From: Nitrospirota bacterium
GTDB lineage: Bacteria; Nitrospirota; UBA9217
Reading direction: 5' to 3'
DNA length: 64,000 nucleotides
Assembly (NCBI GenBank): GCA_963663225.1
Contig: OY760142.1
Coordinates: 2,880,001-2,944,000 of the forward strand
The notes beneath the pieces were generated by a model, which did not search any database, was not told the origin of the DNA, and worked only from the letters and a program-made list of their open reading frames with translations. Positions 29,011-51,452 of this stretch are shown here, piece after piece. Every line of letters starts with the position of its first letter. Position 1 is the first letter of the stretch. A program made the position numbers and the translations under genes.

Positions 29011-29148
29011 ATTTAAGCTAGAAGTGGTTTCAAAGAGACTATTCCTTTTTTTCGGAACCTCACGACAGCGTTATTCTGAGTATACTTATTCGACATTATG
29101 CATCTTCTAATCTTCTCCTTAACCGTAACTTTCAAAAAAATACCGCAT

Positions 29149-29164
29149 TGTGACCTAACTCACA
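29149..29164. promoter_or_regulatory. CRP/FNR-family (or Rex-like) operator
   Basis: TGTGA-CCTAAC-TCACA, perfect TGTGA-N6-TCACA. Confidence 0.5.
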
Positions 29165-29289
29165 TATAATTTTTAAAAAAAATATTATACTTTGGTTGCA
29201 ACATACGTCGATCTTTATATTTTAATATGATACAAGATCTATGGAGAAAAGCTCCATATCATCTCACTTAAACTCTTTTGGGAGGAACC

Positions 29290-29874: not shown

Positions 29875-30140
29875 TTTCAATCAATACTGGTGTGAGGATT
29901 AGAAATACCAGAAGCACATATTAACCGGGTAACATCAACTTCCAGCCTTACAAAATAAAAAAACATCGCTTAAGATCTTCTATGGGAAAACATCCCCATA
30001 GAAGAAGATAAGCATTTGTATGAAGTTGCTGACTCTTCCCTATTCTGAAAACTCTATTAAACAAATCACAACAATCGGTGTCTCACCTAATAAATAGTAC
30101 AAGTACATCATTACGAATGAAGCGTTACGGAGGTGTCATC

Positions 30141-36203: not shown

Positions 36204-37751
36204 TTATATTTTTAATTGTTGATTCTTTTTGGTAAAAAAAACAGCCAGGGCTTGGGCAAATGCGGGAGCAGTGTATTCATTCGGCACAATATCGACCAGC
36301 ATACCGTATTCTTCCGCTGTTCGCGCCGTGACAGGGCCGATACAGGCAATGACTACATTTTCCATAAGGGATGGATTTTCCTTATGATCGATCAGTTCCA
36401 TGAAATTGCGCACACTGGAGGAACTGGTGAATGTAACGGCGGTTATCTTTTTGTCAGCAAGAAGTTTCTTTATATTGCTTGTTTCAGCCGTAGGCTTCAT
36501 GTTTTCATATGCGGTAACGATCGTTACATCTGCACCTTGTTCTTTTAATTTCCGAGGAATCAGCTCGCGTGCTTCCTTTGCCCGAGGGAACAACACTTTT
36601 TTCCCCTTCATGGATTCTCTGCCGAACGCATCCACCAGCCCTTCTGCCCTGAAATCCGCAGGAATTAAATCCGCTTTAATGCCGTATCGTTCGAGGTTTT
36701 CCGCAGTACTGGGACCAATCGCGCAAATTTTGGCCTTCCGCAATGCACGGACATCTTTTCCAAGGTGTTTAAGTCGTTCCATGAAAAACGTCACTGTGTT
36801 CATACTGGTAAAAATAATCCAATCATACCAGCCAAGGCTGTTCAACGCGCTGTCCAGTTCTGACCAGTTGGCCGGTGGTACGATCTCAATAACGGGAAAG
36901 CTGACAACCGATGCGCCATATTCGATGAGTTTTCCGGAAAAAGTATCAGCATGGTCCTGTGACCGGGTAACAACAATAGTCGTGCCGAACAACGGCTTTG
37001 ATTCATACCAGTTCAGTTTTTGACGAAGCTTAACAACATCACCAACAACAATTATTGCCGGAGGACCAAGCTTTGCTTTTTTTACGGCGTCCGCGATATT
37101 GTTAAGCGTACCGTCCGCGACCCTTTGGTCCGGCCGGGTGCCCCATTGAATAGCGGCGACAGGTGTATCCGGGTTCATGCCGTTTGCAAGAAGATTGGAG
37201 GCAATAGCCGGAAGATTTTTCATGCCCATAAAAAAAACGATTGTCCCGGTGCTGGCCGCGAGCTTGGTCCAATCCACTTTTGATTCAGTTTTTTCAGGAT
37301 TCTCATGGCCGGTAACAAACGTCACCGTCGCATTATGGTTCCGGTGGGTAAGCGGGATGCCTGCGTAGGTGGGGACCGCCGTTGCTGCCGAAACCCCGGG
37401 AACAACCTCAAAAGGGATATGTGCATCGGCAAGCGCTTCCGCCTCTTCGCCTCCTCTGCCGAATATGAACGGATCACCGCCTTTTAATCGCGCTATGATT
37501 TTTCCCTCTTTGGCTTTGGCGACAATCAGGGCATTGATTTCATTCTGGGGAAGCGTATGCCTGCCGCTCTGCTTGCCCACATAAATGCGTTCCGCATCCG
37601 GACGTCCTTCTGCAAGAAGTTTTTCGTTTGCCAGATAATCATAAATAATGACATCTGCTTTTTGCACGCACTCCAGGCCCTTTACCGTGATCAATCCCGG
37701 ATCACCGGGCCCTGCACCGATTAAATATACTGTTCCGACGTGTTTTTTCAT
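36204..37751 (-). CDS. cobA: Uroporphyrinogen-III C-methyltransferase / uroporphyrinogen-III synthase fusion (CobA-HemD)
   Basis: GAGPGDPGLIT, RLKGGDPFIFGRGGEE; C-terminal HemD motifs FTSMN, AIGPST, FTSSSSV, CIGPVTA. Confidence 0.93.
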   Translation of the reverse strand: MKKHVGTVYLIGAGPGDPGLITVKGLECVQKADVIIYDYLANEKLLAEGRPDAERIYVGKQSGRHTLPQNEINALIVAKAKEGKIIARLKGGDPFIFGRGGEEAEALADAHIPFEVVPGVSAATAVPTYAGIPLTHRNHNATVTFVTGHENPEKTESKVDWTKLAASTGTIVFFMGMKNLPAIASNLLANGMNPDTPVAAIQWGTRPDQRVADGTLNNIADAVKKAKLGPPAIIVVGDVVKLRQKLNWYESKPLFGTTIVVTRSQDHADTFSGKLIEYGASVVSFPVIEIVPPANWSELDSALNSLGWYDWIIFTSMNTVTFFMERLKHLGKDVRALRKAKICAIGPSTAENLERYGIKADLIPADFRAEGLVDAFGRESMKGKKVLFPRAKEARELIPRKLKEQGADVTIVTAYENMKPTAETSNIKKLLADKKITAVTFTSSSSVRNFMELIDHKENPSLMENVVIACIGPVTARTAEEYGMLVDIVPNEYTAPAFAQALAVFFTKKNQQLKI

Positions 37752-37769: not shown

Positions 37770-39452
37770 TTATTTCTTATCACGTGCAAACGGCCAGGAG
37801 AAAAGACCGCCTTCCAGCACGCGTACATTTTTGAACTTTTCGCCTTCCAGAATTCCTTCAGCTTCGTAACCACGGAGACTGATCTTGCAAAACGTTATTA
37901 TTGTATCATCTTTCTTAAGTTCATTGCAACGGTTCCTGAGTTCTCCCAGCGGTATATGCAGAATTTTTTTGCTGTCCGCCAGTCTGGCCTGTTTATATTC
38001 ATTCAACGTTCGGACATCCAGAAAAACCACTTTTTCGTCTTCCAGCAGCTTTTTTGCCTGAAGCGGAGATATTCCCTTGAACAAGCCGCTGAGTTTGTTC
38101 AACAGCACATTTGCTGCAACTGCAACATTATCTATCGGTGAATTATAAGGCGGAGCATACGACAGGTCAATATCGAACAAATCTTCTACAGTTCCTCCAA
38201 GCGTCAGGACGGATGCGATTACATCTATCCGTTTTGCAACATCGCCCTCTCCCACAACCTGGGCACCGAGAATTTTTCGTGTTTTTGCGTCGGCTATCAG
38301 CTTGATGGTAATTAATCGGGCATTCTCCATATAGTGGGGTCTGTCATGGCCTGCGGAGATCACGGATATATAATCAGAACCAAGCTCTTTTGCTTCGCGC
38401 TCGGTAATACCGGTTTTTCCGATATTTAAATCCAGAACCTTGACTATCACCGTATTCAAAACTCCCTTGAATTTCAGCTGGCCGCCGCACACGTTTTCGC
38501 CGATAATACGCCCCTGCTTGTTGGCAGTCGATCCCATAGGAGCAAATACTTTTTGGCCTGAAATGATATTGACATTTTCGACACAATCGCCGCCAGCAAA
38601 AATATTGGGATCGCTTGTTTGGAGGTTTTGGTTCACGGATATTGCTCCAGTCGTGCCTATCGATAATCCGGATGATTTCGCTAAATCCACGTTCGGCCGC
38701 ACTCCCACCGCCAAAATAACAAGGTCCGCAGGAATGGTCCTCTTATTCGTCTCGACAGCCGACACGGTTGAATCGCCGACAAATCGAACCACCTGTTCCT
38801 GCGTCAGAATACGAAGCCCGGCTTCACGCAGATAATTTTCAGCCATCCCCGCCAGTTCCGGATCGAGAAAAGCAGGGAAAATATTATCTTTCATTTCGAG
38901 CACGGTAACATTGTCCGTCCAGATTTTGAGCGCTTCCGCCATTTCCATGCCCACCAGACCGGCGCCGATTATCACCACATTATTGTATTTGCCCTTTTCC
39001 AGGTCCTGACGGATCAATTTTGCTTCATTCGGATGCCAAAAATTGAAAATATTCTGGAGATCGACATCGGGTAAAGGAGGTGTCACGGGAGAAGCGCCTG
39101 TCGCGATCACTAGCTTATCATACGGCAGAATGTCTTCGAGGCCGGTATCCAGCTTCTTGATTGAAACCGTTTTTGCCTTTCTGTCGATTCCCGTAGCAAG
39201 CGTACGGGTCAATACCGTCACGTTTTTTACCTCATGAAAATAAGCGGAGTCACGAAGTACGCCTGCCGGAGTTTTCATGAGTTCTTCGATGGAATTTACC
39301 TCTGCACTTACATAGTACGGCAGACCGCAGGCTCCATAGGATATTAGATTCCCCTTCTCCAGAACCGTGATTTCCGCATCAGGATCCGTACGCCTAGCCT
39401 TTGATGCAGCCTTTAATCCCGTAGCAACCCCGCCTATAATGACTATCTTCAT
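37770..39452 (-). CDS. CoA-disulfide / persulfide reductase with C-terminal rhodanese (Npsr/CoADR-RHD type)
   Basis: GGVATG, SYGACGLPY redox Cys, GAGLVG, GDC, YAPPYN; rhodanese DVR..HIPL..FCKISLRG. Confidence 0.88.
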   Translation of the reverse strand: MKIVIIGGVATGLKAASKARRTDPDAEITVLEKGNLISYGACGLPYYVSAEVNSIEELMKTPAGVLRDSAYFHEVKNVTVLTRTLATGIDRKAKTVSIKKLDTGLEDILPYDKLVIATGASPVTPPLPDVDLQNIFNFWHPNEAKLIRQDLEKGKYNNVVIIGAGLVGMEMAEALKIWTDNVTVLEMKDNIFPAFLDPELAGMAENYLREAGLRILTQEQVVRFVGDSTVSAVETNKRTIPADLVILAVGVRPNVDLAKSSGLSIGTTGAISVNQNLQTSDPNIFAGGDCVENVNIISGQKVFAPMGSTANKQGRIIGENVCGGQLKFKGVLNTVIVKVLDLNIGKTGITEREAKELGSDYISVISAGHDRPHYMENARLITIKLIADAKTRKILGAQVVGEGDVAKRIDVIASVLTLGGTVEDLFDIDLSYAPPYNSPIDNVAVAANVLLNKLSGLFKGISPLQAKKLLEDEKVVFLDVRTLNEYKQARLADSKKILHIPLGELRNRCNELKKDDTIITFCKISLRGYEAEGILEGEKFKNVRVLEGGLFSWPFARDKK

Positions 39453-39576: not shown

Positions 39577-41193
39577 TTAAAATTCATCTTCCCAGGTGAT
39601 AAATGGCTTGGGTATGTCGACCATGGCATTTACCATCAGTTCAACCAGTCCGCCGTAGATAATATTATATTTTTCTTTAAAACCGTAATAATCAATCAAT
39701 GCATCACGTGCCGCGCCTTTGCAGTTAGAACAGGGCGCGCAATAATACTTCGGGATCGAAGGATCAAGCACATCTTTAAATGCTTCCAGCACCTGCCGGG
39801 CTTTCATCCGGGACGATACGCTGTTGCGCCAATCGGGAAAGTTTTGAGAATTCATGATTGCAAAGCCGCTTCCTCCGCCGCAGCAGTAATTGCTCGTTCC
39901 TGCATGGGGCATTTCCCTGAACTGCCCCGGTGTTACAATCTTGTTCAAAATATTCCGCTGCGGAGAAATAATGCCCATCAAACGCACCATATTGCATGGA
40001 TCATGGAGCGTCACCGGAAAATTGTTTTTTGCGGGATCGAATTTAATGACACCGTTCATAACAAATTGTTCCAAAAGCGGCAGGCAGGCTTCCCGGGGAA
40101 TAGCCATATCTTTTACCAGGACACGATCGGCTATAGTGATCAGGGCCTTGGTGGAATGGCCGCATTCACCAACAATAATCTTTTTTACTCCGAGGTTCTT
40201 GGCAGCCTGGACCTGGGCTAGTGCAATGCGCGCGAACTGGACATCATCATACCAGACCCCATAGTTGACTGCCTCATATCCCATCATCTCACTCGACAGC
40301 GTCCAATTCAGCCCCGCTGCGTCAAAGAGGATGGCAAAAGCCGCCGGGTTCTCGGGCCAGGCCATGTATTCTCCTGCGTTATGAATAAGAAGTATGTCAG
40401 CCCCTTTTTTATCCACCGGTATGACAATGCGCCTTCCGATTTTCTCCTCGATCATGTCTTCGATGAATTCGATATTATCTTTGAAAGCAAGCGAAGTCAT
40501 GCCTGTTGACGATCCTGTTTTTATATGCTGAACAGTGCCGGATTTGTGGACCGGATCCGGTGCGATCCCCATTTCCTGGCTGAATATCTTGCGCAACTCC
40601 CGGGAGAGCAACGCGTTGTCTACCCCCATGGGACATACCGCCGCGCAACGGCGGCACAGGCTGCACCGATATACCAGTTCAGCAAGGCGATATACCACAC
40701 GCCAGTTGAGATCAAGATCGGCTCCTGCCCATTTGCGCAACAGTTTGCCGCTTTTCGTAAAATAGCGGCGTATAATGCGTCGCAGGACTTCTGGGCGGAA
40801 ATTGGGGCGGTAAATATCCTTGTGTCCGCTTTCCACATAAATGTGGCACGCCTCATTGCAGGTGTTGCATTGCATGCAGTATTCAGTACTCAGCGTTGTC
40901 GGCAGCAGAAAACTCCAGTTGTTTTCCTTTTGAAACAGCTTTTCAAGACCGCGCAAAAAACCGTTTACAATGGCTTCTTCCTCTTCTTTCGTCTTGGGAA
41001 TGGGAAGATTGAGCGCGGAAAAACCATCAAGTGAAAAGTCGATTTTTTCTTTTGTCTCGGGCTTTACGTCCCGGAAAGACGGCTGTTTTTCTTCACCAGG
41101 GAGCGGCCGCAAATCCTCAGGCTTCAAAGGAGATACCACAGAATCCGGAGCACCGAAATCTTTTATCTTTAGTTGATGTTTTTTATTTTTCAT
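39577..41193 (-). CDS. dsrK: DsrK/HdrD-like Fe-S, CCG-domain protein (second copy)
   Basis: CMQCNTCNEAC, CSLCRRCAAVCP, GECGH, HDPCN, CCGGGSG, PCSNCK; start ATG 41193. Confidence 0.82.
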   Translation of the reverse strand: MKNKKHQLKIKDFGAPDSVVSPLKPEDLRPLPGEEKQPSFRDVKPETKEKIDFSLDGFSALNLPIPKTKEEEEAIVNGFLRGLEKLFQKENNWSFLLPTTLSTEYCMQCNTCNEACHIYVESGHKDIYRPNFRPEVLRRIIRRYFTKSGKLLRKWAGADLDLNWRVVYRLAELVYRCSLCRRCAAVCPMGVDNALLSRELRKIFSQEMGIAPDPVHKSGTVQHIKTGSSTGMTSLAFKDNIEFIEDMIEEKIGRRIVIPVDKKGADILLIHNAGEYMAWPENPAAFAILFDAAGLNWTLSSEMMGYEAVNYGVWYDDVQFARIALAQVQAAKNLGVKKIIVGECGHSTKALITIADRVLVKDMAIPREACLPLLEQFVMNGVIKFDPAKNNFPVTLHDPCNMVRLMGIISPQRNILNKIVTPGQFREMPHAGTSNYCCGGGSGFAIMNSQNFPDWRNSVSSRMKARQVLEAFKDVLDPSIPKYYCAPCSNCKGAARDALIDYYGFKEKYNIIYGGLVELMVNAMVDIPKPFITWEDEF

Positions 41194-42127
41194 CTCGGTC
41201 TCCTTCCTTTGAAGATTCTCCGTCAACCTGTTCACCCCAGGATTTTCCCTGGCGGATATGCGGCGCGCCCCAGGTGATTTTGTATTGCAGATATGCCGCA
41301 ATATCGTTTTCCATTGCGCTGCCGCGTTTCATCATTTCATCATCCCACATGATATTATGGTAGAAGAAGTATTTTCCCACGAAATGCATCATTCTGCTGA
41401 ACGGCAGATACAAAAGAAACAGGCAAAAAGCCAGTACCTGCAGCACAATAAGCGGTTCTTGTACCATCCCCGGCCTGAGCATTATCAGCGTCGAGACATG
41501 GTGTTTGATGATTTGGAAAGAAGGATCAGCCAATCCCCATGCAAGCAGTGCAGTTCCGAACAGGGAAAACATGCAGAATAAATTGACAAAGCTGACGGTA
41601 TCCGATATGTAATGCATGTCTTCATCAAATATCCTGAGTCCAAGCAGAATCAGGCTGCCGCAGAAACCGGCGATAAAGCTTCCAGCACCCGTAATCAAGA
41701 TCGCATAGGAGACTGCAACCAACAAAGCCGAATCTGAATTTGGTGATGCAGGAATGCCCATCAAGTCAAGAATTGATCCCAGGATGAGAAGCAGAAACCA
41801 TAAAATTCCTAGATACAACCCCGCGTGCAGTGGAAACGTTCCAATCCAGACCTTGGGATTGTTGATGTATATTTTTTTCAAAAACAACATTTCCTGGCTC
41901 ATTTCCTTCATCTCATGAAGGAGTGAGACATGGGGCTGCAACGTGTAAAAATCAACTTTCTGATATTTAGACCCTTCAGGACTCTGGTGTGGTATCGGAT
42001 ACAGATCCCAACGTAAGTGCCGCGGCATGTTTAAATACTTGATAAATGTCAAAATCGTCATCACAAAAGCCAGTACTATAGCGCAGTAAACAAGCGGACC
42101 AATAATAAACCAGGCAAGAGAAAACAT
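41183..42127 (-). CDS. dsrM: DsrM/NarI-like membrane cytochrome b (second copy)
   Basis: PRHLRWDLYPIP, EMLFLK, PLHAG, YLPFSRMMHF..KYFFYH; overlaps the dsrK2 start. Confidence 0.75.
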   Translation of the reverse strand: MFSLAWFIIGPLVYCAIVLAFVMTILTFIKYLNMPRHLRWDLYPIPHQSPEGSKYQKVDFYTLQPHVSLLHEMKEMSQEMLFLKKIYINNPKVWIGTFPLHAGLYLGILWFLLLILGSILDLMGIPASPNSDSALLVAVSYAILITGAGSFIAGFCGSLILLGLRIFDEDMHYISDTVSFVNLFCMFSLFGTALLAWGLADPSFQIIKHHVSTLIMLRPGMVQEPLIVLQVLAFCLFLLYLPFSRMMHFVGKYFFYHNIMWDDEMMKRGSAMENDIAAYLQYKITWGAPHIRQGKSWGEQVDGESSKEGDRDEK

Positions 42128-42146
42128 AGAGAGCCCCCCGAATGGC

Positions 42147-42527
42147 TTACAGCATTCCCCATCCCCGCGTGTATTCCAGAACGATCTGAAAATCACGGTC
42201 GTTGAATCCTGACGATAAGAGCAGACGTTTTGCTTCGCCGGCTTCCATTTCCCGGGAAAAACCGTGGATTGCTTTTCTATCTGCATGAAAAACAAACCCA
42301 TGCGCGGTCAGCAATTCCATCATGGATATGACGCGCGCCATATGATCTGCGGTTTGTCCGGCCATCTGCCGTATCATATCCGTGGTAATAGGTTCGTTGT
42401 TTTTCTCCGGCGTCGTGAAAAGATGATCTTCCGGCAGCAGACTGATTGTTACCTGGGTCAGATGTGTTACAATCGGAGTCGTATTTTTTATGGTGTCAGA
42501 TTCATTCACGATGTCCACCCAATCCAT
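42147..42527 (-). CDS. Hypothetical protein inside the dsr cluster
   Basis: 126 aa, GAGGA-like RBS, co-oriented 19 nt upstream of dsrM2; C-terminal LEYTRGWGML. Confidence 0.65.
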   Translation of the reverse strand: MDWVDIVNESDTIKNTTPIVTHLTQVTISLLPEDHLFTTPEKNNEPITTDMIRQMAGQTADHMARVISMMELLTAHGFVFHADRKAIHGFSREMEAGEAKRLLLSSGFNDRDFQIVLEYTRGWGML

Positions 42528-42625: not shown

Positions 42626-43987
42626 TTATTTGACCGACAGCCAGTAATCCACAAATACGATATTCGAGAGCCAGTAGCCCAGCGGAACATTGATAATAAC
42701 TCCGACGGTAAACGCAGCGAGCGGCTTCCATCCAAAATGAACCAGTTCGCGGAACCGAGTTGTCAAACCAATGGCTAAAAATGTCCAGGTGAATGTCCAG
42801 CCGCGGAGGTTTTTGATAACACCCAAGGCGTCCTTTGAAAAGCCTTTTCCAATCTGAGGATCAAGCATCATAATCACAAGTGTGGTAAAAATCGATGCGA
42901 CAAAGAAACCGATGACAAATTTTGGGAACCGTCTCCATACTTCGCCGTAGTCAATTCGTTCGGCCTGGGAGAGTGTTTTCTTTTCCCACATCGTAACGGA
43001 AAGGATCGCCGCCAACAGGGCCCAGAGGCCGACAAACATATCGCGACCGACGACCTTCATCAGCGTAAAAGTTTTTACGGCCCGGTCATCGCCCGGAGCC
43101 AATTGCGCCATGGCATTGTATTGCTCGGCTGCGGCAAAACCGGCAGCATCAGCGAATTCCGATGTTCCGATCCACGCACCGGCAGGCCCGGGGGCCATCC
43201 CGATGTTCTTTGCAACCAACGGCAGTACGATGACCATAACGATGGCCCAAATAATAACCATCGAAATAGCAATGGATACATGTTCTTTTTCCGCCCTGCA
43301 GGCGCCGCCGACGGCGATGGAGCCAGAAACACCGCATATCGATCCGCCCGCGCCGAGCGTGGCTGCAAACCGCGGATCAAGCTTGAACATATGCGCGGCT
43401 GCCCAATAAATCGTGAAGAAAGTAACCACCGATACGATAGTTGCCTGCAGCATTGCCAGAGGCCCGGCAGACATGATGATGGTAAACGGCAGCGTGGCGC
43501 CCATCAACACGATGCCTGTTTTTACGTAGTATTCAGTACAGAGTGCTTCCTGAAACCATGCCGGTAATTTCATGGTATTGCTGATAATCATGCCGAGCAG
43601 CAAGGCCAACAGCGGCGTTTCGAGCTGCCAGTCTTTCATTAATTTGTTGGATCCTAAAATCGTCACGACCAGCGAGATAATGAACAGAAGCGTGAATCCG
43701 CCGAGATACCGCTTGACATTGCGGCCCATGACAGCGGCGCCGATCGCGAAGGCCACAAGGAAAAACACGAAAAGAATAAATACCCCCCCGGCCTTGCTCG
43801 AGAGGGCATCAGTCACTTTACCAAAGTTATCCGACCAGCCTGGGATGGATACTGCCATTGATTTAAAAAAACCAAAACCGCCTCCTAGGAAGGTAACGGT
43901 AATGAGCAGCGTAAGACCGAGCGCAATGATGATTGCCCACGTATCTTCCCTTTTCATGATTGGCAACTGAGATTGATGCACAGCCAT
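42626..43987 (-). CDS. YeiH/PSE-family (putative sulfate exporter) membrane transporter
   Basis: EYYVKTGIVLMGA, GGSICGVSGSIA, AGAWIGTS, KVVGRD, RFPKFVIGF, FLAIGL; AAGGAGG RBS. Confidence 0.85.
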   Translation of the reverse strand: MAVHQSQLPIMKREDTWAIIIALGLTLLITVTFLGGGFGFFKSMAVSIPGWSDNFGKVTDALSSKAGGVFILFVFFLVAFAIGAAVMGRNVKRYLGGFTLLFIISLVVTILGSNKLMKDWQLETPLLALLLGMIISNTMKLPAWFQEALCTEYYVKTGIVLMGATLPFTIIMSAGPLAMLQATIVSVVTFFTIYWAAAHMFKLDPRFAATLGAGGSICGVSGSIAVGGACRAEKEHVSIAISMVIIWAIVMVIVLPLVAKNIGMAPGPAGAWIGTSEFADAAGFAAAEQYNAMAQLAPGDDRAVKTFTLMKVVGRDMFVGLWALLAAILSVTMWEKKTLSQAERIDYGEVWRRFPKFVIGFFVASIFTTLVIMMLDPQIGKGFSKDALGVIKNLRGWTFTWTFLAIGLTTRFRELVHFGWKPLAAFTVGVIINVPLGYWLSNIVFVDYWLSVK

Positions 43988-44056
43988 AACGGAAATCCTC
44001 CTTTTATAGAGCGATTCACCATGGATTTCTCCAGGTGTGGTCATAAACTTCGTATG

Positions 44057-44374
44057 TTATACGCATCCGGTCGGTTTCGGCAGGCCTGCCAGCTTGCACG
44101 CGCCCTTAGCAGGTCCAGAAGGAAACATTTCATAAATTTCCTTCAAGGAGAAACCGGTATCTTTGCACAGCTTCCGGATCATGGGCGCAACGCCGAATTT
44201 TTTGAAATAATCCCGAAGATAATTGATCACTTTCCAGTGGTTTTCAGTCAGCTGGTTCACGTTTTCCTGTGAGGCGAAATATGTCACCATATCGTCGCTC
44301 CAGTCATCCGGATTGACCAGGAAACCATCTTCATCCAGTTCTACATTATTTCCTTTCACCTGAACAACACTCAT
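44057..44374 (-). CDS. dsrC: Sulfur carrier protein DsrC
   Basis: DEDGFL..W, HWKVI, C-terminal CKLAGLPKPTGCV with both Cys (C-X10-C). Confidence 0.95.
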   Translation of the reverse strand: MSVVQVKGNNVELDEDGFLVNPDDWSDDMVTYFASQENVNQLTENHWKVINYLRDYFKKFGVAPMIRKLCKDTGFSLKEIYEMFPSGPAKGACKLAGLPKPTGCV

Positions 44375-44412
44375 GCTATGCTCCCTCCCGTTTTGTGAAC
44401 TTTGTAGTCATT

Positions 44413-45750
44413 CTATTTTAGCACCAATGCCTTGCCGACCAGATCCATCAACCCTCCCATGGGCAAATCCTTGACGCCGTAATACTCCATAACCGTCGGA
44501 AGCTGGGCTTTGCATATGGAACAGGGAATGACGAAGTAATCAAGCTTTCCGAGCGCCAGTACCTGCTCGGCCTTCTTTTTGCCGAGCTGCATGCGGATTT
44601 CCTTCATTTCATCCATGAGAATGCCGGAACCGCCGCCGCAGCAGAAATTTTCCTCACGATTCGGCGTCATTTCGACAAACTCGTCGACAACAGCCTTCAA
44701 AATTTTGCGGGGTTGCTCGATCATGCCCCCGGCGCGGGCATAATTGCAGGGATCATGCAGCGTAACGCGGAGCGGCAGTTTTTTGAGCGGCATACGATCG
44801 ATATAATCAGCCGCGACTTCAAGAACGTGCCGGATTTCAAACGGCGCCGGGCCGTTTGCGCCCTCCGTGTACATTTTTGCCGCACGCCATCCGTGACCGC
44901 ATTCGCCCTGAATGACCAGCTTCGCGCCGAGCGTTTTCGCAGCGTCGAATAATCTTCGGTTGTGCTCTTTCATCACATGCAGGTTGAAAAGCAGACCGAA
45001 ATTTGCCGCTTCAAGGACGGATGAGGAGATTGTCCAGTTCAAACCAAGATAGTGAAACATCTTGGCGGCACCGATCATGGTATCAACGTTGGTGAAAAAA
45101 TCCGCGGACGATGGAACATAAAGCACATCTGATCCCGGCTTGTCGACGGGGATCTTGATGTCGATTCCGGTTTCTTCACGCATCTCATCCTGCATGAACT
45201 CTGCGGTGTCCACCGTTGCCGGTCCCGGGATCCCCATGTTATTGCCGCTTTTAACCATGTTCGCGGCGATCCCCTGCATAAATCTCGGCATAATTCCCAA
45301 TTCGGACAGTATATGCCGGGCTGCGATCGTTACTTCCGCCGTATCAATGCCGAACGGACAGAATACCGCGCAACGGCGGCATTCATTGCACTGATAATAA
45401 TACGTCAGCCATTTGGTCAATGTTTCTGCGTCAAAATCTTCCGCACCCGCGAACCTTCCGAACAGTTTTCCCTGGAGCGTGAAATACCGTTTATACACCC
45501 GGCGCATGAGTTCCGCCCGTGCCGCTGGAAAATTGTAATAATCCTGGGTGCCGAGATAGCTGTGGCATTGTTTTGCGCATTTGCCGCACTTTGTGCAGGT
45601 TTCGAGCATGACCATGAGGGAACGCATGCTTTTACGCACGTCGCCCAGTTTGGCGAGTGCGCGCAACTGCTGTTCCGGCTCCGGCGTCATGGGGAATCCA
45701 ATGGACGCAACTTCTTTTGCTTTTGCCAGATGCATGGGAGGTTTAAGCAT
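44413..45750 (-). CDS. dsrK: DsrK Fe-S/CCG subunit
   Basis: CTKCGKCAKQC, CNECRRCAVFCPFGID, GECGHGW, HDPCN, CCGGGSG, PCSICK; start ATG 45750. Confidence 0.88.
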   Translation of the reverse strand: MLKPPMHLAKAKEVASIGFPMTPEPEQQLRALAKLGDVRKSMRSLMVMLETCTKCGKCAKQCHSYLGTQDYYNFPAARAELMRRVYKRYFTLQGKLFGRFAGAEDFDAETLTKWLTYYYQCNECRRCAVFCPFGIDTAEVTIAARHILSELGIMPRFMQGIAANMVKSGNNMGIPGPATVDTAEFMQDEMREETGIDIKIPVDKPGSDVLYVPSSADFFTNVDTMIGAAKMFHYLGLNWTISSSVLEAANFGLLFNLHVMKEHNRRLFDAAKTLGAKLVIQGECGHGWRAAKMYTEGANGPAPFEIRHVLEVAADYIDRMPLKKLPLRVTLHDPCNYARAGGMIEQPRKILKAVVDEFVEMTPNREENFCCGGGSGILMDEMKEIRMQLGKKKAEQVLALGKLDYFVIPCSICKAQLPTVMEYYGVKDLPMGGLMDLVGKALVLK

Positions 45751-46519
45751 TGGCGTCCCTCTGTACGATGCGTGCGTCCCGGGTGACTCCGTTCCGGGTA
45801 GGATAAACCGGAGCAGCTTCAACCAGCATGGAGCGATTGACAAAGAAACCGGCAAGATGCACCAGTTTTGAAAACGGAAAATAGAGAAGAAACAGATTCA
45901 CCAGAGAAAAATGGGTCACGAAAACCCATTTCTGCGGTATGGGAACCGGGTGCAGCATGATGAGGCTGCCGAGATACGCGCGAATTGCAGGGAGGTCGAT
46001 TTCAAGTGAGGTAACACGCATATGCATTCCGGTTATCACGATTGCAAGAAGAAGGAGCAGGTCGAAGTAATCTGCCGGATCGGACAAACGCTTGACCTCG
46101 GGGACGGCTGTTCTTCTGTAGAAAAGCACGAGAAGAGCAACCAAGATGCCGATGCCGGAAACCGTCCCGAAAAAAGCAGACAATCGGGAGCTGGCATCTT
46201 CCGTCAAACCGATCATGGTAAACTGGTGCGTCAGATAGTAAATCCCGACAATATGTCCGATGATGATCATCAACAGCATGCCATGCATGAACCAGGCCCA
46301 GAACCAGAGTCCTTCGGAGCCGCCGCGGCGCAGACTCGTGAACAATAGCAGCTCTTTTGCAATGGCCGTTATGCGACCTGCGGTAGAATCCGGAGCCGGA
46401 AACAACGTTATTTGAAATGGTACCGGCGCCTTGAACCACGCAAGTATCCGCCCTGTCATGCCGATCAGAAAAACGGCGACGGCTATATAGGGAAAAACTT
46501 CTCCGACAAAAAAGAGCAT
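45743..46519 (-). CDS. dsrM: DsrM membrane di-heme cytochrome b
   Basis: NarI-like 5 TM; four His (FMH-x9-H and VTH-x17-H), PFSKLVH. Confidence 0.88.
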   Translation of the reverse strand: MLFFVGEVFPYIAVAVFLIGMTGRILAWFKAPVPFQITLFPAPDSTAGRITAIAKELLLFTSLRRGGSEGLWFWAWFMHGMLLMIIIGHIVGIYYLTHQFTMIGLTEDASSRLSAFFGTVSGIGILVALLVLFYRRTAVPEVKRLSDPADYFDLLLLLAIVITGMHMRVTSLEIDLPAIRAYLGSLIMLHPVPIPQKWVFVTHFSLVNLFLLYFPFSKLVHLAGFFVNRSMLVEAAPVYPTRNGVTRDARIVQRDANA

Positions 46520-46573
46520 ATTCGGTGACCTCCTCCGTTCCGGAAAACACGCAACCGCGCTTTGATACGCGTA

Positions 46574-47638
46574 TTAGAACTTGAATTGCGTAGTGGAACG
46601 GAATGTAGTCGTCGCATGGGTGAAATCATCTAGATGTTTATCGGTAAAGGGAAGATCCGCCAGTTTAAAAAACTTTTCCCATCCAATCCGGTTGATCCAT
46701 TCTCCCATCCGCTCACCTTCACGGGCCTTGGACGCCCACAGTTCCACCAAATTTTTTACGGCTGCGGTCGTGGAAGACCACCGGGGTGGTTCGTTCGGAA
46801 TGTACGGAATGGCAAGCCGCGAGAACATAGGAGAGTTCCTGGCATTGGACACCTTGCCGCCGACCCAGATTGACACGCCGTCATTGACCGGGTCCATGAT
46901 CTGGAGACCTGCCGGGCAGACCACCACGCAGTTGCCGCACATCATGCATTTTTCCGCAATGATCTCCACGCTCTTCACCTTCGGGTTGGGCCTGATGGCT
47001 CCGGTCGGACACGATGCGATGATATTCGGCAATTCGCACGCACGGGCCACTCCTTCATTATTGATCCGGGGTATGGTGCGGTGTATGCCGACGACCGCGA
47101 TGTCAGAGCAATGGCAGGCCCCGCACATGTTGACGCAGCAGGCAACAGCGATCCGCATGCGTGCCGGCACCTTGATCTTCCCCGTGAAATAATCGGTCAT
47201 TTCATCCATAATGCTCTTGGTTATTCCTGAAGCATCGGTGACCGCACTCTTGCAGTGTATCCATCCCTGGGTATGGACGATATTGCTGACCGAAAGGCCG
47301 ACGCCGCCGATCAGATAGTCTTTTGAGTCTAGTTCATCAATAAGCGGCTGCAGTTTTTTCTCATCAGACACCAGAAATTCAACGTTATGCCTGGTCGTGA
47401 ACCGGAGATATCCGTCGCAATAGGTATCGGCAATAGCGGTTATATCCCGTATCCAGTCACTGCTCACCAGCCGGGGCGTCGCGACGCGAACAGAATGTAT
47501 GGCTGCGCCGGTGTTGCTTACATGTTTTAATACTCCCGGACGAGGTACGGTATGATATTTCCAATTACCGTAATTCTCCTTGATGATCGGGGGGATCATT
47601 TCACGATAATCTGGCGGTCCAATATCTGTTTTGGCCAT
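46574..47638 (-). CDS. dsrB: Dissimilatory sulfite reductase beta subunit
   Basis: YGNWKYH, FTTRHNVEF, HTQGWIHC, ACCVNMCG, CPTGAI, CMMCGNC, PNEPPRW. Confidence 0.96.
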   Translation of the reverse strand: MAKTDIGPPDYREMIPPIIKENYGNWKYHTVPRPGVLKHVSNTGAAIHSVRVATPRLVSSDWIRDITAIADTYCDGYLRFTTRHNVEFLVSDEKKLQPLIDELDSKDYLIGGVGLSVSNIVHTQGWIHCKSAVTDASGITKSIMDEMTDYFTGKIKVPARMRIAVACCVNMCGACHCSDIAVVGIHRTIPRINNEGVARACELPNIIASCPTGAIRPNPKVKSVEIIAEKCMMCGNCVVVCPAGLQIMDPVNDGVSIWVGGKVSNARNSPMFSRLAIPYIPNEPPRWSSTTAAVKNLVELWASKAREGERMGEWINRIGWEKFFKLADLPFTDKHLDDFTHATTTFRSTTQFKF

Positions 47639-47639
47639 G

Positions 47640-48824
47640 TTACTTTACCTCCTCTTTTGTCCAGAATATATAGGGGTTGCTTCGCGGTGCACGGACCATC
47701 TGAGGCAGCGGCTTAAGGCCCACTGCAGCCAGAAACTCCGAAAGCCCAACGCGCTCGATCAGTTCGCCGACCCGCTCCCTGTTCTTTCCATGCTCCGCCC
47801 ACCAGTCAGTCACTTTGTCGATCAAATCTTTCAATTCTGTGTAGGGAGCCTCCATTTTCATAAACGGCACCAGCACCCAGCCGATCATGGCGCCTTTTAC
47901 AACAGGGGCCTTGCCGCCGATAAGGATGGCGGCCCCGCGGTCGCGGCCGACGCTTATTGCTTTGGGCATCATGTTGATGCAATGCATGCAGTGGACGCAA
48001 TCTTCGGCATTCACAATGAGCTGCTTCTTCGCCGGATCCCAGTTCAAGGCCTCTGACGGGCATTTCCGGACAACACGGTTAAAAATGTCAAAACCTTTAT
48101 CGACCGTCTCGGTCACCGCAGCATTATCAATTCGGACAGCGTCGCGCCATACCCCGATAATTGCGAAATCGGAGCGGGCGGACGCGGCGGCACAATCGTT
48201 GGAGCATGCGGAAACTTTGATCTTAAATTTATACGGCCATTGCGGTCTGTGGATGAAATCCTGATAGTGCAGTGTCAGGTCGCGGATGATATCCATGCTG
48301 TTGATGCAGGCTTTTTCACACCGCGCCTGCCCCACACAGCAGGACAAGGTACGCATGGCGCCCCCAGACCCCCCGAGGTCGAAGCCGATCTCGGACAATT
48401 CATCCACACAAGGCTGCAGATTTTCCGTTGTGGTTCCCAGAAGGATAATGTCTCCCGTGGATCCGTGCATATTGTAGAGCCCGCTGCCGTACTTGTCCCA
48501 GATGTCTGCCAGTTGACGGAGCTTCTTCGTAGTATAGAAAAAACCCGCCGGCTGGTTTACCCGGATCGTGTGAAATTCCTTGACGTTGGGAAAACGATCG
48601 GCAGCGTCGGAATACCGGCCCACGACACCGCCGCCGTATCCTTTGACGCCGACAATGCCGCCGTGTTTCCAATGACCGATCTTCGCGACGTATGAAGATT
48701 CAAGCTGCTGCAGCAAATCCGCGGCGCTTTTGCTCTTTTTAGCTGCGCGTTTTATCTCGGTGACAAAACTCGGCCAGTCACCTTTTTCAAGCTCATCCAA
48801 CAGCGGGGTCTTTCCTTCTTCCAT
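47640..48824 (-). CDS. dsrA: Dissimilatory sulfite reductase alpha subunit
   Basis: TPLLDELEKG.WPSFV, HWKHGGIVGV.GYGGG, HGSTGD, siroheme motif CVGQARC..CSNDC, CVHCMHCIN. Confidence 0.97.
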   Translation of the reverse strand: MEEGKTPLLDELEKGDWPSFVTEIKRAAKKSKSAADLLQQLESSYVAKIGHWKHGGIVGVKGYGGGVVGRYSDAADRFPNVKEFHTIRVNQPAGFFYTTKKLRQLADIWDKYGSGLYNMHGSTGDIILLGTTTENLQPCVDELSEIGFDLGGSGGAMRTLSCCVGQARCEKACINSMDIIRDLTLHYQDFIHRPQWPYKFKIKVSACSNDCAAASARSDFAIIGVWRDAVRIDNAAVTETVDKGFDIFNRVVRKCPSEALNWDPAKKQLIVNAEDCVHCMHCINMMPKAISVGRDRGAAILIGGKAPVVKGAMIGWVLVPFMKMEAPYTELKDLIDKVTDWWAEHGKNRERVGELIERVGLSEFLAAVGLKPLPQMVRAPRSNPYIFWTKEEVK

Positions 48825-48848
48825 CGCGGCAACCTCCTGTTTAGGGAA

Positions 48849-49031
48849 TTAATATTCCTCAACTTTTATGGCACTTACCGGACATACTGCGACACATCCC
48901 TGGCATCCCAGACACTCGTCCTCATTGGGAACCGCTTTCCCGTTTTCTATCTTGAATATTTCCGCAGGACAGGCTTTTGCACATTCACCGCATCCTGTGC
49001 ATAGTTCTTCATTGACCGTTACGACAAACAT
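48849..49031 (-). CDS. 2x[4Fe-4S] ferredoxin
   Basis: CTGCGECAKACP and CLGCQGCVAVCP; directly upstream of dsrA. Confidence 0.92.
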   Translation of the reverse strand: MFVVTVNEELCTGCGECAKACPAEIFKIENGKAVPNEDECLGCQGCVAVCPVSAIKVEEY

Positions 49032-49117
49032 GTTTTCACCCCCTCGTTTGTTGGCACCGTTTTCTACCTAATATAGTGTGACTCGACTATTTTCAGTTTA
49101 ACATCGCGGCGGATGCA

Positions 49118-49612
49118 CTATCCTCCTGCCTGGTCCGAACCTCTTTTTGACGCTATGCATTTTGCGCAAAGGCCGCAATACTGAACAAGGTGATTCGTAA
49201 TGAGAAAATTATATTTTTTTGACAACTTTTCCTGAATCGTTTCAAGAATATTCAGTTCTTCACCGATGAAATCACTGTATTCAATAATGCGGCTGCATTC
49301 CGTACAGACAAGATGGTGATGATACTTTACACATTTCGGTCCTTGCAGCAGTTCGAACCGTGCTCTGCCATCGCCAAAATCAAACCTGGCAACCATGCCC
49401 ATATTGACCAGAAGTTCCAGTGTTCTGTAGACAGTTGTCAATCCGATTGATGGCTTTTCTGCATGAACTTTAATGTAAATATCTTCTGCGCTGAGATGCT
49501 CTGTGGATTGAGACAAAATATTGAGAATGGCTTCACGGCCGGCCGTCATTCTGTGGCCGACTCGTTTAATTTTACCACTGGAATCTGAAGGCTTGCTCTG
49601 CTCCCCGGGCAT
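49118..49612 (-). CDS. Fur-family transcriptional regulator
   Basis: HLSAEDIY, TTVYRTL, HHHLVCTEC, CGLCAKC. Confidence 0.92.
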   Translation of the reverse strand: MPGEQSKPSDSSGKIKRVGHRMTAGREAILNILSQSTEHLSAEDIYIKVHAEKPSIGLTTVYRTLELLVNMGMVARFDFGDGRARFELLQGPKCVKYHHHLVCTECSRIIEYSDFIGEELNILETIQEKLSKKYNFLITNHLVQYCGLCAKCIASKRGSDQAGG

Positions 49613-49636
49613 TTTTATGCCGGCCCTCCATTATTG

Positions 49637-49684
49637 TTAATGAAAACCATTTCCATTAATACCACATTGTAAATAAGCTGTCAA
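49637..49684 (-). promoter_or_regulatory. Promoter of the fur-like gene overlapped by a Fur-type inverted repeat
   Basis: Minus strand TTGACA at 49684-79; palindrome TTAATGAAAACCATTTCCATTAA (49637-59) over the -10/+1 region. Confidence 0.55.
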
Positions 49685-49881
49685 GCTCTTTCTGACACTT
49701 CAGCAATCTTGGACCACATAACTTTAAAGCATTTATTGTAGGATATTATGCGTGAGGAATATTGATTTTTTTAAATCTTTATTGTACTATAGCATGTTTT
49801 TAGGGCTTCATTACACATTGGAATAATTTCTACTTTCCCCTTTTCTTTTAAATTCATACTGGACATCACCGGGAGTTGTGG

Positions 49882-50616
49882 ATGGATGCGGTTCAGAGGG
49901 ATATAAACATTAAAATCAAGGAAATCACAGAAACCTGGGGGGCTGACTTTGTTGGCGTGGCAGATATAAAGCAGGCTCATGAAGCAATTCTGGATCAGGG
50001 CGGTCCGATAATTGCTGAATATCCTCTGGCTATTTCCGTTGGAATTGGCCTGCAACACTCCATTGTGGAACAACTCCCGGAGCGTGCCAACCGGACAGTG
50101 GCATTAAGCTACCAGTACCACAGCTATGATCTTGTCAACCAGCGGCTTGACCTTCTCATAAAGCAAATAAGCAGATTCCTGCAACGTGCCGGCTATCAAG
50201 CACTGCCCGTACCTGCCTCAAAACAGATTGATGACGAACGCATCTGTGCGGCGTTCTCTCACAAAATGGCTGCGCATTTGGCCGGTTTAGGCTGGATCGG
50301 CAAAAGCTGCTTATTGGTCACCCCGGAAATGGGGCCGCGTGTGCGATGGGCCACGGTGCTTACTGATGCACCTTTGCAGACAACCCGGAAGGCCCTTGAG
50401 GGGCAATGCGGTGACTGCAGACTGTGTGTGGATATTTGTCCTGTTCACGCCTTTACGGGAACTTCCTTCCGTACGTCTGAACCGCGCGGAAAACGGTATG
50501 ATGCTGCCAAATGTGAACGGTATTTTTCCAAAATGAGAGAAGAAAACAACGGTCTTGCGGTCTGCGGTCTCTGCTTATATATTTGCCCGCATGGGAAACG
50601 GCAGAACCGCAACTAA
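49882..50616 (+). CDS. QueG-like (epoxyqueuosine reductase-like) double-cluster Fe-S protein
   Basis: SHKMAAHLAGLGWIGKSCLL..GPRVR..VLTD, CGDCRLCVDICP, CERY, CGLCLYICP. Confidence 0.75.
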   Translation: MDAVQRDINIKIKEITETWGADFVGVADIKQAHEAILDQGGPIIAEYPLAISVGIGLQHSIVEQLPERANRTVALSYQYHSYDLVNQRLDLLIKQISRFLQRAGYQALPVPASKQIDDERICAAFSHKMAAHLAGLGWIGKSCLLVTPEMGPRVRWATVLTDAPLQTTRKALEGQCGDCRLCVDICPVHAFTGTSFRTSEPRGKRYDAAKCERYFSKMREENNGLAVCGLCLYICPHGKRQNRN

Positions 50617-50620
50617 TTTT

Positions 50621-51271
50621 TTATATCAATCCAGTTCCTTTCAGTATTTCGTTTTCTATGTGTTGCTTAACGTGTGAAAACCCTCTTTTCTTCAATAGGT
50701 CAAGAATCCTCCGGCTACCCAACTCTTTCAAAATATGGTTCTTCTCGACGCTTGCTAAAGAAGACGATTCGGCAACGGTCTTTACAATCTTCGGACGCAT
50801 CTTTTTCAGATACGCCAGATATCGAGATAACTCAGATGGAAAAACATCTTCCAATGCTTTTCTGAGTGTCTTTGTAAGTGCGGGACTTATACCGGAACTT
50901 GAAATAGCAATTGTGAGAGGGCCCTTCCGAACTACAGAAGGCATGATAAAACTGCACTGTTCAGGAATATCAACAACATTGATAAGTTGCGGCGCATCAT
51001 CCGCAATAATACTGTTTATTTCCTGATCTGAAGTCGCCGCTATAACAAGAAAAGCATCATTTGCATCATTCTTTCTAAAACATCTTTTCTTCGATTTAAC
51101 CCTTTTTGCAGTTAAAAGTTTTTCGAGGCCCGGCGTCAAACAGGGGCTGATAACGGTTATGTCCGCCCCAGTCGGAAGAAGCTGCTTTACCTTCCTTTCA
51201 GCTACACTCCCTCCCCCGATGACAACACATTTTTTTTTATTGAGATTTAAAAATACCGGGAAAAATTTCAT
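50621..51271 (-). CDS. Precorrin-2 dehydrogenase / sirohydrochlorin ferrochelatase (SirC / CysG N-terminal)
   Basis: FPVFLNL..CVVIGGGSVAERK, AATSD, NVVD.P..C.F..P, AISSSGISP; start may be 51301. Confidence 0.88.
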   Translation of the reverse strand: MKFFPVFLNLNKKKCVVIGGGSVAERKVKQLLPTGADITVISPCLTPGLEKLLTAKRVKSKKRCFRKNDANDAFLVIAATSDQEINSIIADDAPQLINVVDIPEQCSFIMPSVVRKGPLTIAISSSGISPALTKTLRKALEDVFPSELSRYLAYLKKMRPKIVKTVAESSSLASVEKNHILKELGSRRILDLLKKRGFSHVKQHIENEILKGTGLI

Positions 51272-51452
51272 GATCTTTTTATGATTATCCTTCCTGAGCA
51301 TGATTTGCTGCTGGTATATATAATACTAAATTACAAAGCATTATTGCCAGCAAAATAGCCATTTTTTTACAGTACAGGACACAAAAGAACTGAGGGAGGC
51401 AGCTCTCTAAAAAACATTTTCCATAAAAATGGTGTAAAACGCTCTTGATTGC

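Follow-up and report, generated by a model that had tools for sequence, protein, structure and literature searches.

Background

In the dissimilatory sulfite reductase systems that have been studied, DsrAB is summarised as reducing sulfite onto DsrC, with the resulting DsrC trisulfide being reduced again by the membrane complex DsrMK at the expense of menaquinol (Diao 2023; Neukirchen 2023). The reductive bacterial-type group of DsrAB is described as holding only phyla with DsrD, and the early-diverging DsrAB lineages as consistently free of dsrD and dsrL (Diao 2023); genome surveys use DsrD to call a DsrAB reductive. Systems related to the one treated here have been described in Gram-positive bacteria: the genome paper of the sulfate reducer Desulfotomaculum ruminis describes a DsrMK without JOP subunits next to dsrC, along with a second dsrMK copy, in Gram-positive sulfate reducers, and the authors of DiSCo mention an "alternative DsrMK type". 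In this work we analyze a dsr locus in a 64,000-nucleotide stretch (hereinafter the window) of a Nitrospirota genome (GCA_963663225.1, contig OY760142.1, positions 2,880,001 to 2,944,000), where eleven genes form a row on the minus strand: fur-fdx-dsrA-dsrB-dsrM-dsrK-dsrC-yeiH-M2-K2-npsr, M2 and K2 being a second DsrMK-like pair.

A preliminary description of this stretch had taken the DsrABCMK set for a minimal and probably early-diverging system, like those with archaeal DsrAB or the second DsrAB copy of Moorella. We find that the DsrAB of the window is a crown, reductive bacterial-type enzyme nested among those of Sporomusaceae, and that the system is neither ancient nor categorically new. 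It appears likely that the block of about 12 kb, fdx-dsrABMKC-yeiH-M2K2-npsr, is of crown Firmicutes type, was taken up whole by a Nitrospirota ancestor, and serves to respire sulfite and not sulfate.

Results and discussion

Placement of DsrAB in the crown of the family

A tree of 86 DsrA rows was computed with IQ-TREE under LG+C20+F+G4 (short search; support from the Shimodaira-Hasegawa-like approximate likelihood ratio test, SH-aLRT), in which long-branch warnings concern outgroup rows only. A branch of length 2.01 (SH-aLRT 98) splits 74 crown rows from the archaeal-type rows and from rows representing the second copy of Moorella-type loci. The DsrA of the window lies in the crown, in a clade far from the oxidative-like rows. 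It pairs (support 100) with that of a locus titled uncultured Nitrospiraceae (L003), and the pair belongs to a seven-row clade together with Dendrosporobacter, Lucifera, Anaerospora, a Sporomusaceae metagenome-assembled genome (MAG) and a MAG labelled Nitrospiraceae (L007; SH-aLRT 97), which sits in turn inside a 15-row clade of Negativicutes (SH-aLRT 99).

DsrA identity to the Sporomusaceae is 75-83%. Among the best 120 of 6,993 matches the nearest named ones come mainly from Negativicutes and further Firmicutes, with Dendrosporobacter (82%) and Lucifera butyrica (80%) followed by Selenomonadales, Thermanaeromonas and Syntrophomonadaceae, and one named match, at 72%, is from Pirellulales. DsrB is 83% identical to that of Anaerospora versus 54-58% to the type of the host family. 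A library of representatives at 50% identity yields matches that are mostly fragmentary: of 150 listed, about a dozen are near full length, and ten of these entered the tree. Its best full-length match, a representative whose cluster includes a protein from Desulfobaccales, has 55% DsrA identity, and the representatives of clusters with Pyrobaculum, Thermoplasmatota and Thermocladium are at 36% each.

The Moorella-type loci (L046, L055, L061, L063) provide a direct comparison with the basal type, as each holds one DsrA copy 64-68% identical to that of the window and a second copy 27-35% identical. The second, basal copy of L046 scores 251 and 248 bits, under the curated dsrA and dsrB cut-offs, and the window genes score 550 and 476. 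Like the DsrAB of archaeal type, the second Moorella copy resembles the window locus in having no DsrD and a minimal accessory set; both differ from it in being only 27-36% identical and in lying across the long branch. The preliminary description had further pointed to short subunits. DsrA and DsrB, with 394 and 354 residues, are indeed shorter than those of Desulfovibrio (437 and 381 residues); the commonest lengths across related loci are 385-397 and 352-357 residues, and the native type of the host family has 392 and 357, so that length is not diagnostic and tells nothing about a basal position.

As a separate observation, both DsrAB types share one locus in L046, L061 and L063, which are of Thermanaeromonas/Moorellaceae type: a crown fdx-dsrAB, an MK pair of K2 type, dsrC and a truncated dsrC-like gene precede the basal dsrAB copy.

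Host lineage and lateral acquisition

The genome surveyed is a single contig of 3,255,001 bases, 98.99% complete. GatB, encoded 5 kb from the locus, has four organism-named matches among the 120 listed, all from Nitrospirae/Nitrospirota at 83-84% identity. A Negativicute, likewise a diderm, is ruled out as host by GatB and by genome kinship. Two loci titled uncultured Nitrospiraceae (L003 and L014) show 98% DsrA identity, and L003 also shares flanking genes (gatC, panD, gatB, those for SurA-like, PilZ and M20 proteins, and sirC) at 93-98%.

DsrA was detected in 158 of 301 genomes of the phylum and in 58 of the 63 genomes of the host family. Among the matches listed for the family, the full-length ones show 57-61% identity with the DsrA of the window, and two genomes of the same genus (G055 and G226) alone reach 98%. 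Of the 63 genomes in the family, 49 match aprA, and in 38 the match exceeds the cut-off; aprA is absent from the genome of the window (G000), G055 and G226, and present in G184, another member of the genus. Sulfur respiration has thus been repeatedly reshuffled within the host genus. By genome, G184 combines a native DsrA (58%) with aprA, three genomes including that of the window have the foreign DsrA and no aprA, and two further ones (G020 and G080, 94-100% complete) lack DsrA and have no credible match to aprA.

In the tree the native DsrA rows of the family form a clade of their own with other families of the phylum. When the window and L003 were forced together with the 15 native Nitrospirota rows, the constraint was rejected in the approximately unbiased (AU) test (difference in log-likelihood 212, p 4e-70), the group having been chosen by genome kinship but after the tree had been seen. 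Because the family has a differing native DsrA and common descent is rejected, lateral acquisition by a diderm host, put forward as a possibility in the preliminary description, is now supported. Furthermore, 13 Bacillota-labelled rows enclose the two lineages labelled Nitrospirota (the window with L003, and L007), and therefore the transfer ran from Negativicutes to Nitrospirota. Multiple lateral transfers of dsrAB into the Nitrospirae lineage have been published previously (Anantharaman 2018).

The host belongs to a sulfate-reducing family, but its own locus of the dsrABD...MKJ type, sat and aprA are lost. That native locus, as preserved in other genomes of the family (L117-L121), has the same core enzymes with near-equal subunit lengths, whereas its DsrA is 57-61% identical and in a separate clade, and a DsrD-like gene stands beside dsrB in the loci read. 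In L117 the order is dsrA-dsrB-(DsrD-like)-(dsrN-like)-...-dsrC-fdx-...-dsrM-dsrK-(DsrJ-like), where dsrA, dsrB, dsrC, dsrM, dsrK and fdx were labelled by blastp, DsrD by a custom profile (see below), and dsrN and DsrJ by position and size only.

The Nitrospiraceae-labelled MAG L007 carries a mosaic (9043-21179 of that locus), in which fur-fdx-dsrAB is followed by dsrM-dsrK-dsrO-dsrP and then by dsrC-yeiH-M2. Its Negativicutes-type parts are 76-87% identical to the window (dsr and yeiH genes; M2 60%), and a canonical MK-OP segment is inserted between dsrB and dsrC. The DsrK of this segment groups with native Nitrospirota DsrK, and a gap of 340 bases follows its dsrK.

Gene order shared with Negativicutes

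Gene neighborhoods were surveyed by tblastn of the window proteins on 80 fetched loci, of which 19 are Negativicutes-type (L003-L019, L049, L071). The order fdx-dsrA-dsrB-dsrM-dsrK-dsrC-yeiH-M2-K2 is common to Dendrosporobacter (L006), a Pelosinus MAG (L010), Sporomusa rhizae (L012) and several Negativicutes MAGs, and the same order with npsr after K2 is found in Anaerospora hongkongensis (L005) and a Sporomusaceae MAG (L004); Lucifera butyrica (L008) has this order without yeiH, and npsr is also missing from its locus. Identities across the genes of the syntenic block are 45-85%. Each of the 19 Negativicutes-type loci, and six others (L046, L055, L061, L062, L063, L070), has an fdx homolog immediately upstream of dsrA; in 12 of the 19, the gene after dsrC is a yeiH homolog (61-99% identity). 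The Sporomusaceae loci share with the window gene order, 76-83% DsrA identity and the lack of a DsrD-like gene. They differ in their host, Bacillota as against Nitrospirota, in the Fur gene, which precedes fdx only in the Nitrospirota copies (tblastn on the fetched loci finds Fur homologs only in the Nitrospirota-labelled L003 and L014, at 97%, and L007, at 78%), and in part in npsr, which follows K2 in the window, L004 and L005 and is elsewhere or absent in other Sporomusaceae-type loci.

In all the DNA fetched for the 19 Negativicutes-type loci, the custom profile detected no DsrD-like open reading frame (ORF). Whole-genome searches for DsrD likewise gave nothing in Sporomusa rhizae and Lucifera, and in Anaerospora a marginal match only (E 0.002, in a 258-residue frame). 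As JOP-less Gram-positive systems are known and DsrD is absent from 19 of 19 loci, the minimal gene set was inherited from the donor lineage and is not a primitive feature.

A tree of 66 DsrK-like proteins tells a parallel story for the membrane complexes, as both DsrK paralogs of the window nest among their Negativicutes counterparts. The clade of the first DsrK from Negativicutes is sister to DsrK of Pelotomaculum type and has the MKJOP-type clade as its neighbor. K2 falls in another family, one that also includes the MK pairs following dsrC in Syntrophorhabdus-like and Dehalococcoidia loci and the pairs of Moorella-type loci.

The Gram-positive clusters with DsrMK only (the Desulfotomaculum group; Pelotomaculum propionicicum, L079) are also close, sharing with the window a JOP-less DsrMK by dsrC, a second dsrMK copy and a ferredoxin gene. 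They differ in carrying a DsrD-like gene after dsrB (71.8 bits in L079, 76.3 bits in L069) and in a DsrA identity of about 64%; P. propionicicum has dsrN as well. Measured against the textbook system, the window block has DsrMK in the style of the Firmicutes, neither DsrD nor DsrN, and a conserved tail of transporter and second MK pair (with npsr in part of the clade), all within a Nitrospirota genome. In one MAG labelled as a delta-proteobacterium (L020, 4610-8641), two tandem dsrA-like ORFs, of 387 and 582 residues, precede dsrB, which may be a duplication or an assembly artefact.

Whole-genome complement of sulfur-metabolism genes

The genome, in which the preliminary description had proposed looking for a second dsrAB, holds only one, the second match to the dsrA model being the paralogous dsrB. 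Searches of the genome gave no matches for AprA (TIGR02061), Sat (TIGR00339; 5 of 14 control genomes positive) or the DsrE family representing the DsrEFH relay (PF02635; 10 of 14 control genomes positive). The Pfam model PF08679 finds no DsrD in this genome, but it matched none of the 14 control genomes either, and it missed DsrD-like ORFs following dsrB in L022 and L079 (E 0.001) and gave nothing in the two whole genomes to which those ORFs belong (G002 and G003). Given this weakness as a detector, a custom profile was built from 81 DsrD-like ORFs that follow dsrB. They come from 79 of 119 loci, a set in which certain places were fetched twice. The custom profile found nothing up to E 10 in 51,287 six-frame segments of the genome, and a 22-sequence alignment (A1) gave no match in the genome and 9e-23 in the P. 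propionicicum control.

For the remaining accessory genes we ran blastp against the six-frame translated genome with L117 ORFs downstream of dsrB, L007 DsrM, DsrK, DsrO and DsrP, and L022 DsrJ, DsrT and DsrN as queries; some of the L117 queries are labelled by position and size only, and the L022 DsrT is an RsbRD_N domain. These searches found no DsrN, DsrT, DsrJ or DsrP in the genome and, for DsrO, just weak matches to other Fe-S proteins (26-36% over about 110-220 residues); with no J or P match and such O matches, the complex does not belong with MKJOP. The only DsrK-like and DsrM-like genes in the genome are the two window pairs. As regards DsrL, six genes carry a Fer4_20 domain (GltD/NfnB-type), none of them near the locus. 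The minimality noted in the preliminary description therefore extends genome-wide for D, N, T, J, P and E, with O represented by the weak Fe-S matches alone. That description had set against its basal placement a DsrAB in ordinary reductive bacterial-type clades together with dsrD and dsrJOP elsewhere in the genome: a position in such ordinary clades is what the tree shows, whereas dsrD and dsrJOP were not found.

All six molybdopterin proteins in the genome are of formate dehydrogenase or NuoG type, none being a PhsA/PsrA-type enzyme. Two paralogous alpha subunits of periplasmic-type formate dehydrogenases lie at genome positions 2662496-2665552 and 2669158-2672352. Both have a Tat signal as well as a TGA codon in frame near residue 200 (the selenocysteine position), and a gene for an Fe-S subunit follows each of them. 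A second DsrC/TusE-like gene (genome 493017-493337) has the terminal Cys only, with Tyr at the inner position, and adjoins genes for TusA and a JAB-domain protein (genome 493017-494203). As it lacks the inner Cys and stands beside TusA, it is probably part of a biosynthetic sulfur-carrier relay outside the dsr system.

Gene products of the block

All genes of the block lie on the minus strand, and their coordinates are those of the window. The contiguous run fur-fdx-dsrA-dsrB-dsrM-dsrK-dsrC at 44057-49612, the absence of dsrD between dsrB and dsrM, the retained cofactor motifs, the two cysteines of DsrC, the ferredoxin gene directly before dsrA, and the second MK pair, transporter and persulfide reductase-like gene had all been noted in the preliminary description, and each was confirmed, with one start amended.

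DsrA (47640-48824) scores 550.5 bits on TIGR02064 (cut-off 392.85) and aligns over its full length with the DsrA of Archaeoglobus fulgidus (PDB 3MM5 chain A, E 3.6e-154); DsrB (46574-47638) scores 476.2 bits on TIGR02066 (cut-off 341.5) and aligns likewise with 3MM5 chain B (E 1.3e-126). The CX5C and CX3C motifs of DsrA, the C...CCX3C motif of DsrB and the cysteines of the ferredoxin domains are all in register with 3MM5 A/B. As to which of these cysteines bind the [4Fe-4S] cluster coupled to siroheme and which the cluster of the ferredoxin domain, we follow the published structures. The fdx gene (48849-49031) ends 24 bases before dsrA and encodes a ferredoxin of 60 residues with two predicted [4Fe-4S] clusters (Fer4 families), a candidate electron donor to DsrAB judging from its conserved position. 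Upstream of it by 86 bases lies the gene for a Fur-family regulator (49118-49612; PF01475, 108 bits), which is under the individual cut-off of every NCBIfam Fur/PerR/Zur model.

The dsrM gene (45743-46519), separated from dsrB by 54 gene-free bases, encodes a NarI-type membrane cytochrome b of 258 residues (PF02665, 73.5 bits). Against the model for DsrM of MKJOP complexes (NF038037) it reaches 103 bits, under the cut-off of 300, and it is 65-68% identical to its homologs in Anaerospora and Lucifera versus about 30% to DsrM of MKJOP complexes. DsrK (44413-45750), the cytoplasmic Fe-S subunit with a CCG domain (PF02754), scores 416.7 bits on NF045796 (cut-off 400) and contains CCG at residue 371 and two CX2CX2CX3C motifs. 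Its start has been corrected: the listed ORF (44413-45855), starting with TTG, overlaps dsrM by 113 bases, and the ATG at 45750 leaves an overlap of 8 bases, as in L003. DsrK and the NarI-type DsrM together make a two-subunit DsrMK. In PDB, DsrK has a single weak match (9ojn, 6e-8) and K2 has none. DsrC (44057-44374; 105 residues; PF04358, 136 bits) ends in ...GACKLAGLPKPTGCV, with both arm cysteines of a functional DsrC.

Beginning 12 bases past dsrC, the next gene (42626-44044) encodes a YeiH-family membrane transporter (PF03601, 159 bits; 91.5 bits on TIGR00698, under the cut-off), a candidate carrier of sulfite or thiosulfate. M2 (41183-42301), the membrane partner in the second pair, shows only a weak DsrM match (27 bits) and no Pfam family, and is kept beside K2 in related loci; the coordinates are those of the longest ORF, and the actual start is probably near 42127. 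K2 (39577-41193) is another DsrK-like protein with a CCG motif and belongs to the alternative DsrMK type; its NF045796 score, 327.7 bits, is below the cut-off. The last gene of the row, npsr (37770-39452), encodes a protein with a CoA-disulfide-reductase fold (Pyr_redox_2) and a C-terminal rhodanese domain. Its alignment with PDB 6PFZ (chain D, E 8e-162) spans residues 1-553 and brings the two active-site cysteines into register, and it aligns also with the 3NTA group and 8A56 ("CoA-persulfide reductase"), so that by its domains and cysteines the product is predicted to be an Npsr-like persulfide reductase. With the NADH-dependent persulfide reductases (6PFZ, 3NTA/3NTD/3NT6, 8A56) it shares the full-length architecture of flavoprotein plus rhodanese, whereas its activity is predicted and its tie to dsr is one of neighborhood only.

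Proposed function and competing explanations

The genes of the block are intact, have their catalytic residues present and are conserved together. The likely function, as far as homology tells, is sulfite respiration, possibly fed by thiosulfate. A YeiH-type carrier would import sulfite or thiosulfate. The rhodanese domain of the Npsr-like protein may strip sulfane sulfur from thiosulfate, thereby freeing sulfite, and reduction of the persulfide to sulfide would fall to its flavoprotein part. DsrAB, receiving electrons from the small ferredoxin, would then reduce sulfite onto DsrC to form the DsrC trisulfide, which the membrane-bound DsrMK would re-reduce with menaquinol under release of sulfide, this being the presumed energy-conserving step; the second MK pair may act as a parallel module from quinol to thiol. 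The flanking cobA-hemD and sirC-like genes could supply siroheme, which would not be amidated as no DsrN was found, and the two selenocysteine-containing formate dehydrogenases may be a source of electrons for the quinone pool. Sulfate is excluded as a substrate by the lack of Sat and AprA.

Thiosulfate enters this picture through Lucifera butyrica, which has a locus of the same type and is described as using thiosulfate as electron acceptor, with 4.5 mM sulfide formed, and as not using sulfate, sulfite or sulfur. Its authors reported dsr genes and rhodaneses and no thiosulfate reductase genes, and proposed that rhodaneses plus DsrAB are responsible. As the window genome for its part has no PhsA/PsrA-type enzyme, the rhodanese-flavoprotein of the block could split thiosulfate. 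We tentatively suggest, with less assurance than for sulfite respiration as such, that the Npsr-like enzyme may split thiosulfate and the YeiH-type carrier import the anion. Still further goes the notion, which we regard as doubtful, of a mobile, self-contained thiosulfate/sulfite cassette that would dispense with DsrD, DsrN and a molybdopterin thiosulfate reductase, the Npsr-like protein splitting thiosulfate, the ferredoxin feeding DsrAB and M2K2 serving some other thiol or persulfide carrier. If this were true, uptake of the cassette would have let a Nitrospirota genus replace a whole sulfate-reduction pathway, and the clade would be a cultured exception to DsrD as a marker of reductive bacterial-type DsrAB.

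Several points speak against a transferred block for sulfite respiration. L. butyrica carries the locus and, by its description, did not use sulfite or sulfate as acceptor, so that carrying the locus does not guarantee growth on added sulfite; nor can its thiosulfate reduction be credited to yeiH and npsr, as its locus is without both. Only part of the relatives (L003, L004, L005, L011, L012, L055) have npsr linked to the locus. Relatives such as Pelotomaculum have dsrAB although they are not known to reduce sulfate. For the ferredoxin, YeiH carrier, Npsr-like protein and M2K2, roles are assigned from neighborhood and homology only. DsrD activates DsrAB allosterically (Ferreira 2022), and without it the enzyme may be slower or act in another role. 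Composition, which had been proposed as a check on lateral origin, carries no foreign sign and is uninformative: the GC content of the island is 49.5% versus 49.4% for the genome, its tetranucleotide distance is typical, and GC at third codon positions of its genes falls between the 5th and 88th percentile of the genome, so that it is phylogeny and distribution that argue for transfer. An empty insertion site could not be demonstrated either, since the cobA-hemD homologs of four relatives (G080, G096, G020, G184) have different neighbors. Two metagenome runs labelled RNA-Seq, probably DNA, yielded short contigs only, 90-97% alike.

These points have to be set against what other explanations would require. 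That the locus is a primitive, early-diverging DsrABCMK akin to the archaeal type or the second Moorella copy seems to us scarcely credible. The genome-wide lack of DsrD, DsrN, DsrT, DsrJ, DsrP and DsrE, with weak matches for DsrO, is what such a view predicts, and the early-diverging lineages lack dsrD and dsrL in the account of Diao 2023; yet DsrA is 27-36% identical to basal types versus 55-83% to crown types, a supported long branch separates it from the former, the second copies of L046, L055, L061 and L063 reach only about 250 bits, below the dsrA and dsrB cut-offs, where the window genes have 550 and 476, and the same gene set extends throughout a tip clade of Negativicutes. A reversed direction, with stored or external sulfur being oxidized to sulfite or disproportionated, is very improbable. 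Reductive-type DsrAB can operate in disproportionators (Diao 2023), and the rhodanese-persulfide enzyme could deliver sulfane sulfur to it. However, the DsrE family that was found in most control genomes is missing here, there is no Sat or AprA to dispose of the sulfite, the small ORFs lying between dsrN and dsrM in L117 have no match in this genome, and the DsrA clade is distant from the oxidative-like rows.

It is conceivable, though in our estimate unlikely, that the block is not respiratory at all and removes internally made sulfite (from organosulfonates or under stress) or acts as a redox sink, with little or no conservation of energy, as suspected for the dsrAB of syntrophs. The absence of the DsrD activator, of Sat and of Apr would fit such a role, as would the reported failure of the locus-bearing L. 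butyrica to grow with sulfite as acceptor and the presence of P. propionicicum and Syntrophorhabdus-like genomes in nearby crown clades. Nevertheless, two quinol-linked MK pairs, a DsrC with two cysteines and a dedicated transporter are conserved together, which exceeds the needs of detoxification, and Lucifera is reported to form its 4.5 mM sulfide from thiosulfate serving as electron acceptor. Sulfite respiration by a laterally acquired block is hence the explanation we prefer.

Implications for the use of DsrD as a marker

As none of the 19 loci of a well-sampled clade with cultured members holds a DsrD-like gene, the DsrD marker has false negatives inside the crown as well as among early-diverging lineages. 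PF08679 also misses clear DsrD-like ORFs, which may inflate reports of DsrD absence: examples are L022:12292-12501 and L079:12229-12495. The loci in which the custom profile finds DsrD-like ORFs include those of the native Nitrospirota family type, such as L117 (12242-12478). A paper on aquifer Nitrospirota states that most Thermodesulfovibrionia lack dsrD, a statement that may partly reflect detection limits.

The genome also offers a clean case, on a closed sequence, of a guild member exchanging its pathway: in a genus belonging to a sulfate-reducing Nitrospirota family, sat, apr and the native dsr locus have disappeared, and some members have a sulfite module of foreign origin instead. In dsrAB amplicon surveys, organisms of this kind would count as sulfate reducers, and of the wrong phylum. 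The conserved partners, namely the ferredoxin, YeiH, the second MK pair and the Npsr-like protein, are testable candidates for the electron donor of DsrAB and for thiosulfate reduction in L. butyrica. In the literature texts searched we found no description of the block or of a DsrD-less Negativicutes clade; supplementary tables may list these genomes.

Other features of the window

The block is flanked on its npsr side by cobA-hemD (36204-37751, minus strand), a fused uroporphyrinogen-III methyltransferase/synthase gene (PF00590 and PF02602), which is 65-67% identical in relatives of the host and therefore a host gene. On the other side lies a sirC-like gene (50621-51301, minus strand) for a precorrin-2 dehydrogenase with the siroheme synthase N-terminal domain (PF13241, PF14824; TIGR01470, 143 bits, over the cut-off). 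The roughly 1 kb of DNA that separates fur from the sirC-like gene (49613-50620) contains family-less ORFs only (e.g. 49771-50073, no Pfam match) and has no Rfam match. Scans of the window for promoters (30 promoter-like sites versus 20.9 +/- 4.9 in shuffles) and terminators (19 terminator-like sites versus 17.5 +/- 4.5) gave no usable signal, and Rfam found one tRNA in it and nothing else.

At 20544-30746 the tRNA-Ala gene (20544-20619) is followed by a phage-type integrase (20633-21736), a helix-turn-helix gene and about 9 kb of DNA with a GC content of 33-36%, versus 49% for the genome, holding mostly family-less ORFs and a gene for a zinc phospholipase-C-like protein. The region resembles an integrative island targeted to a tRNA gene and is distinct from the dsr block.

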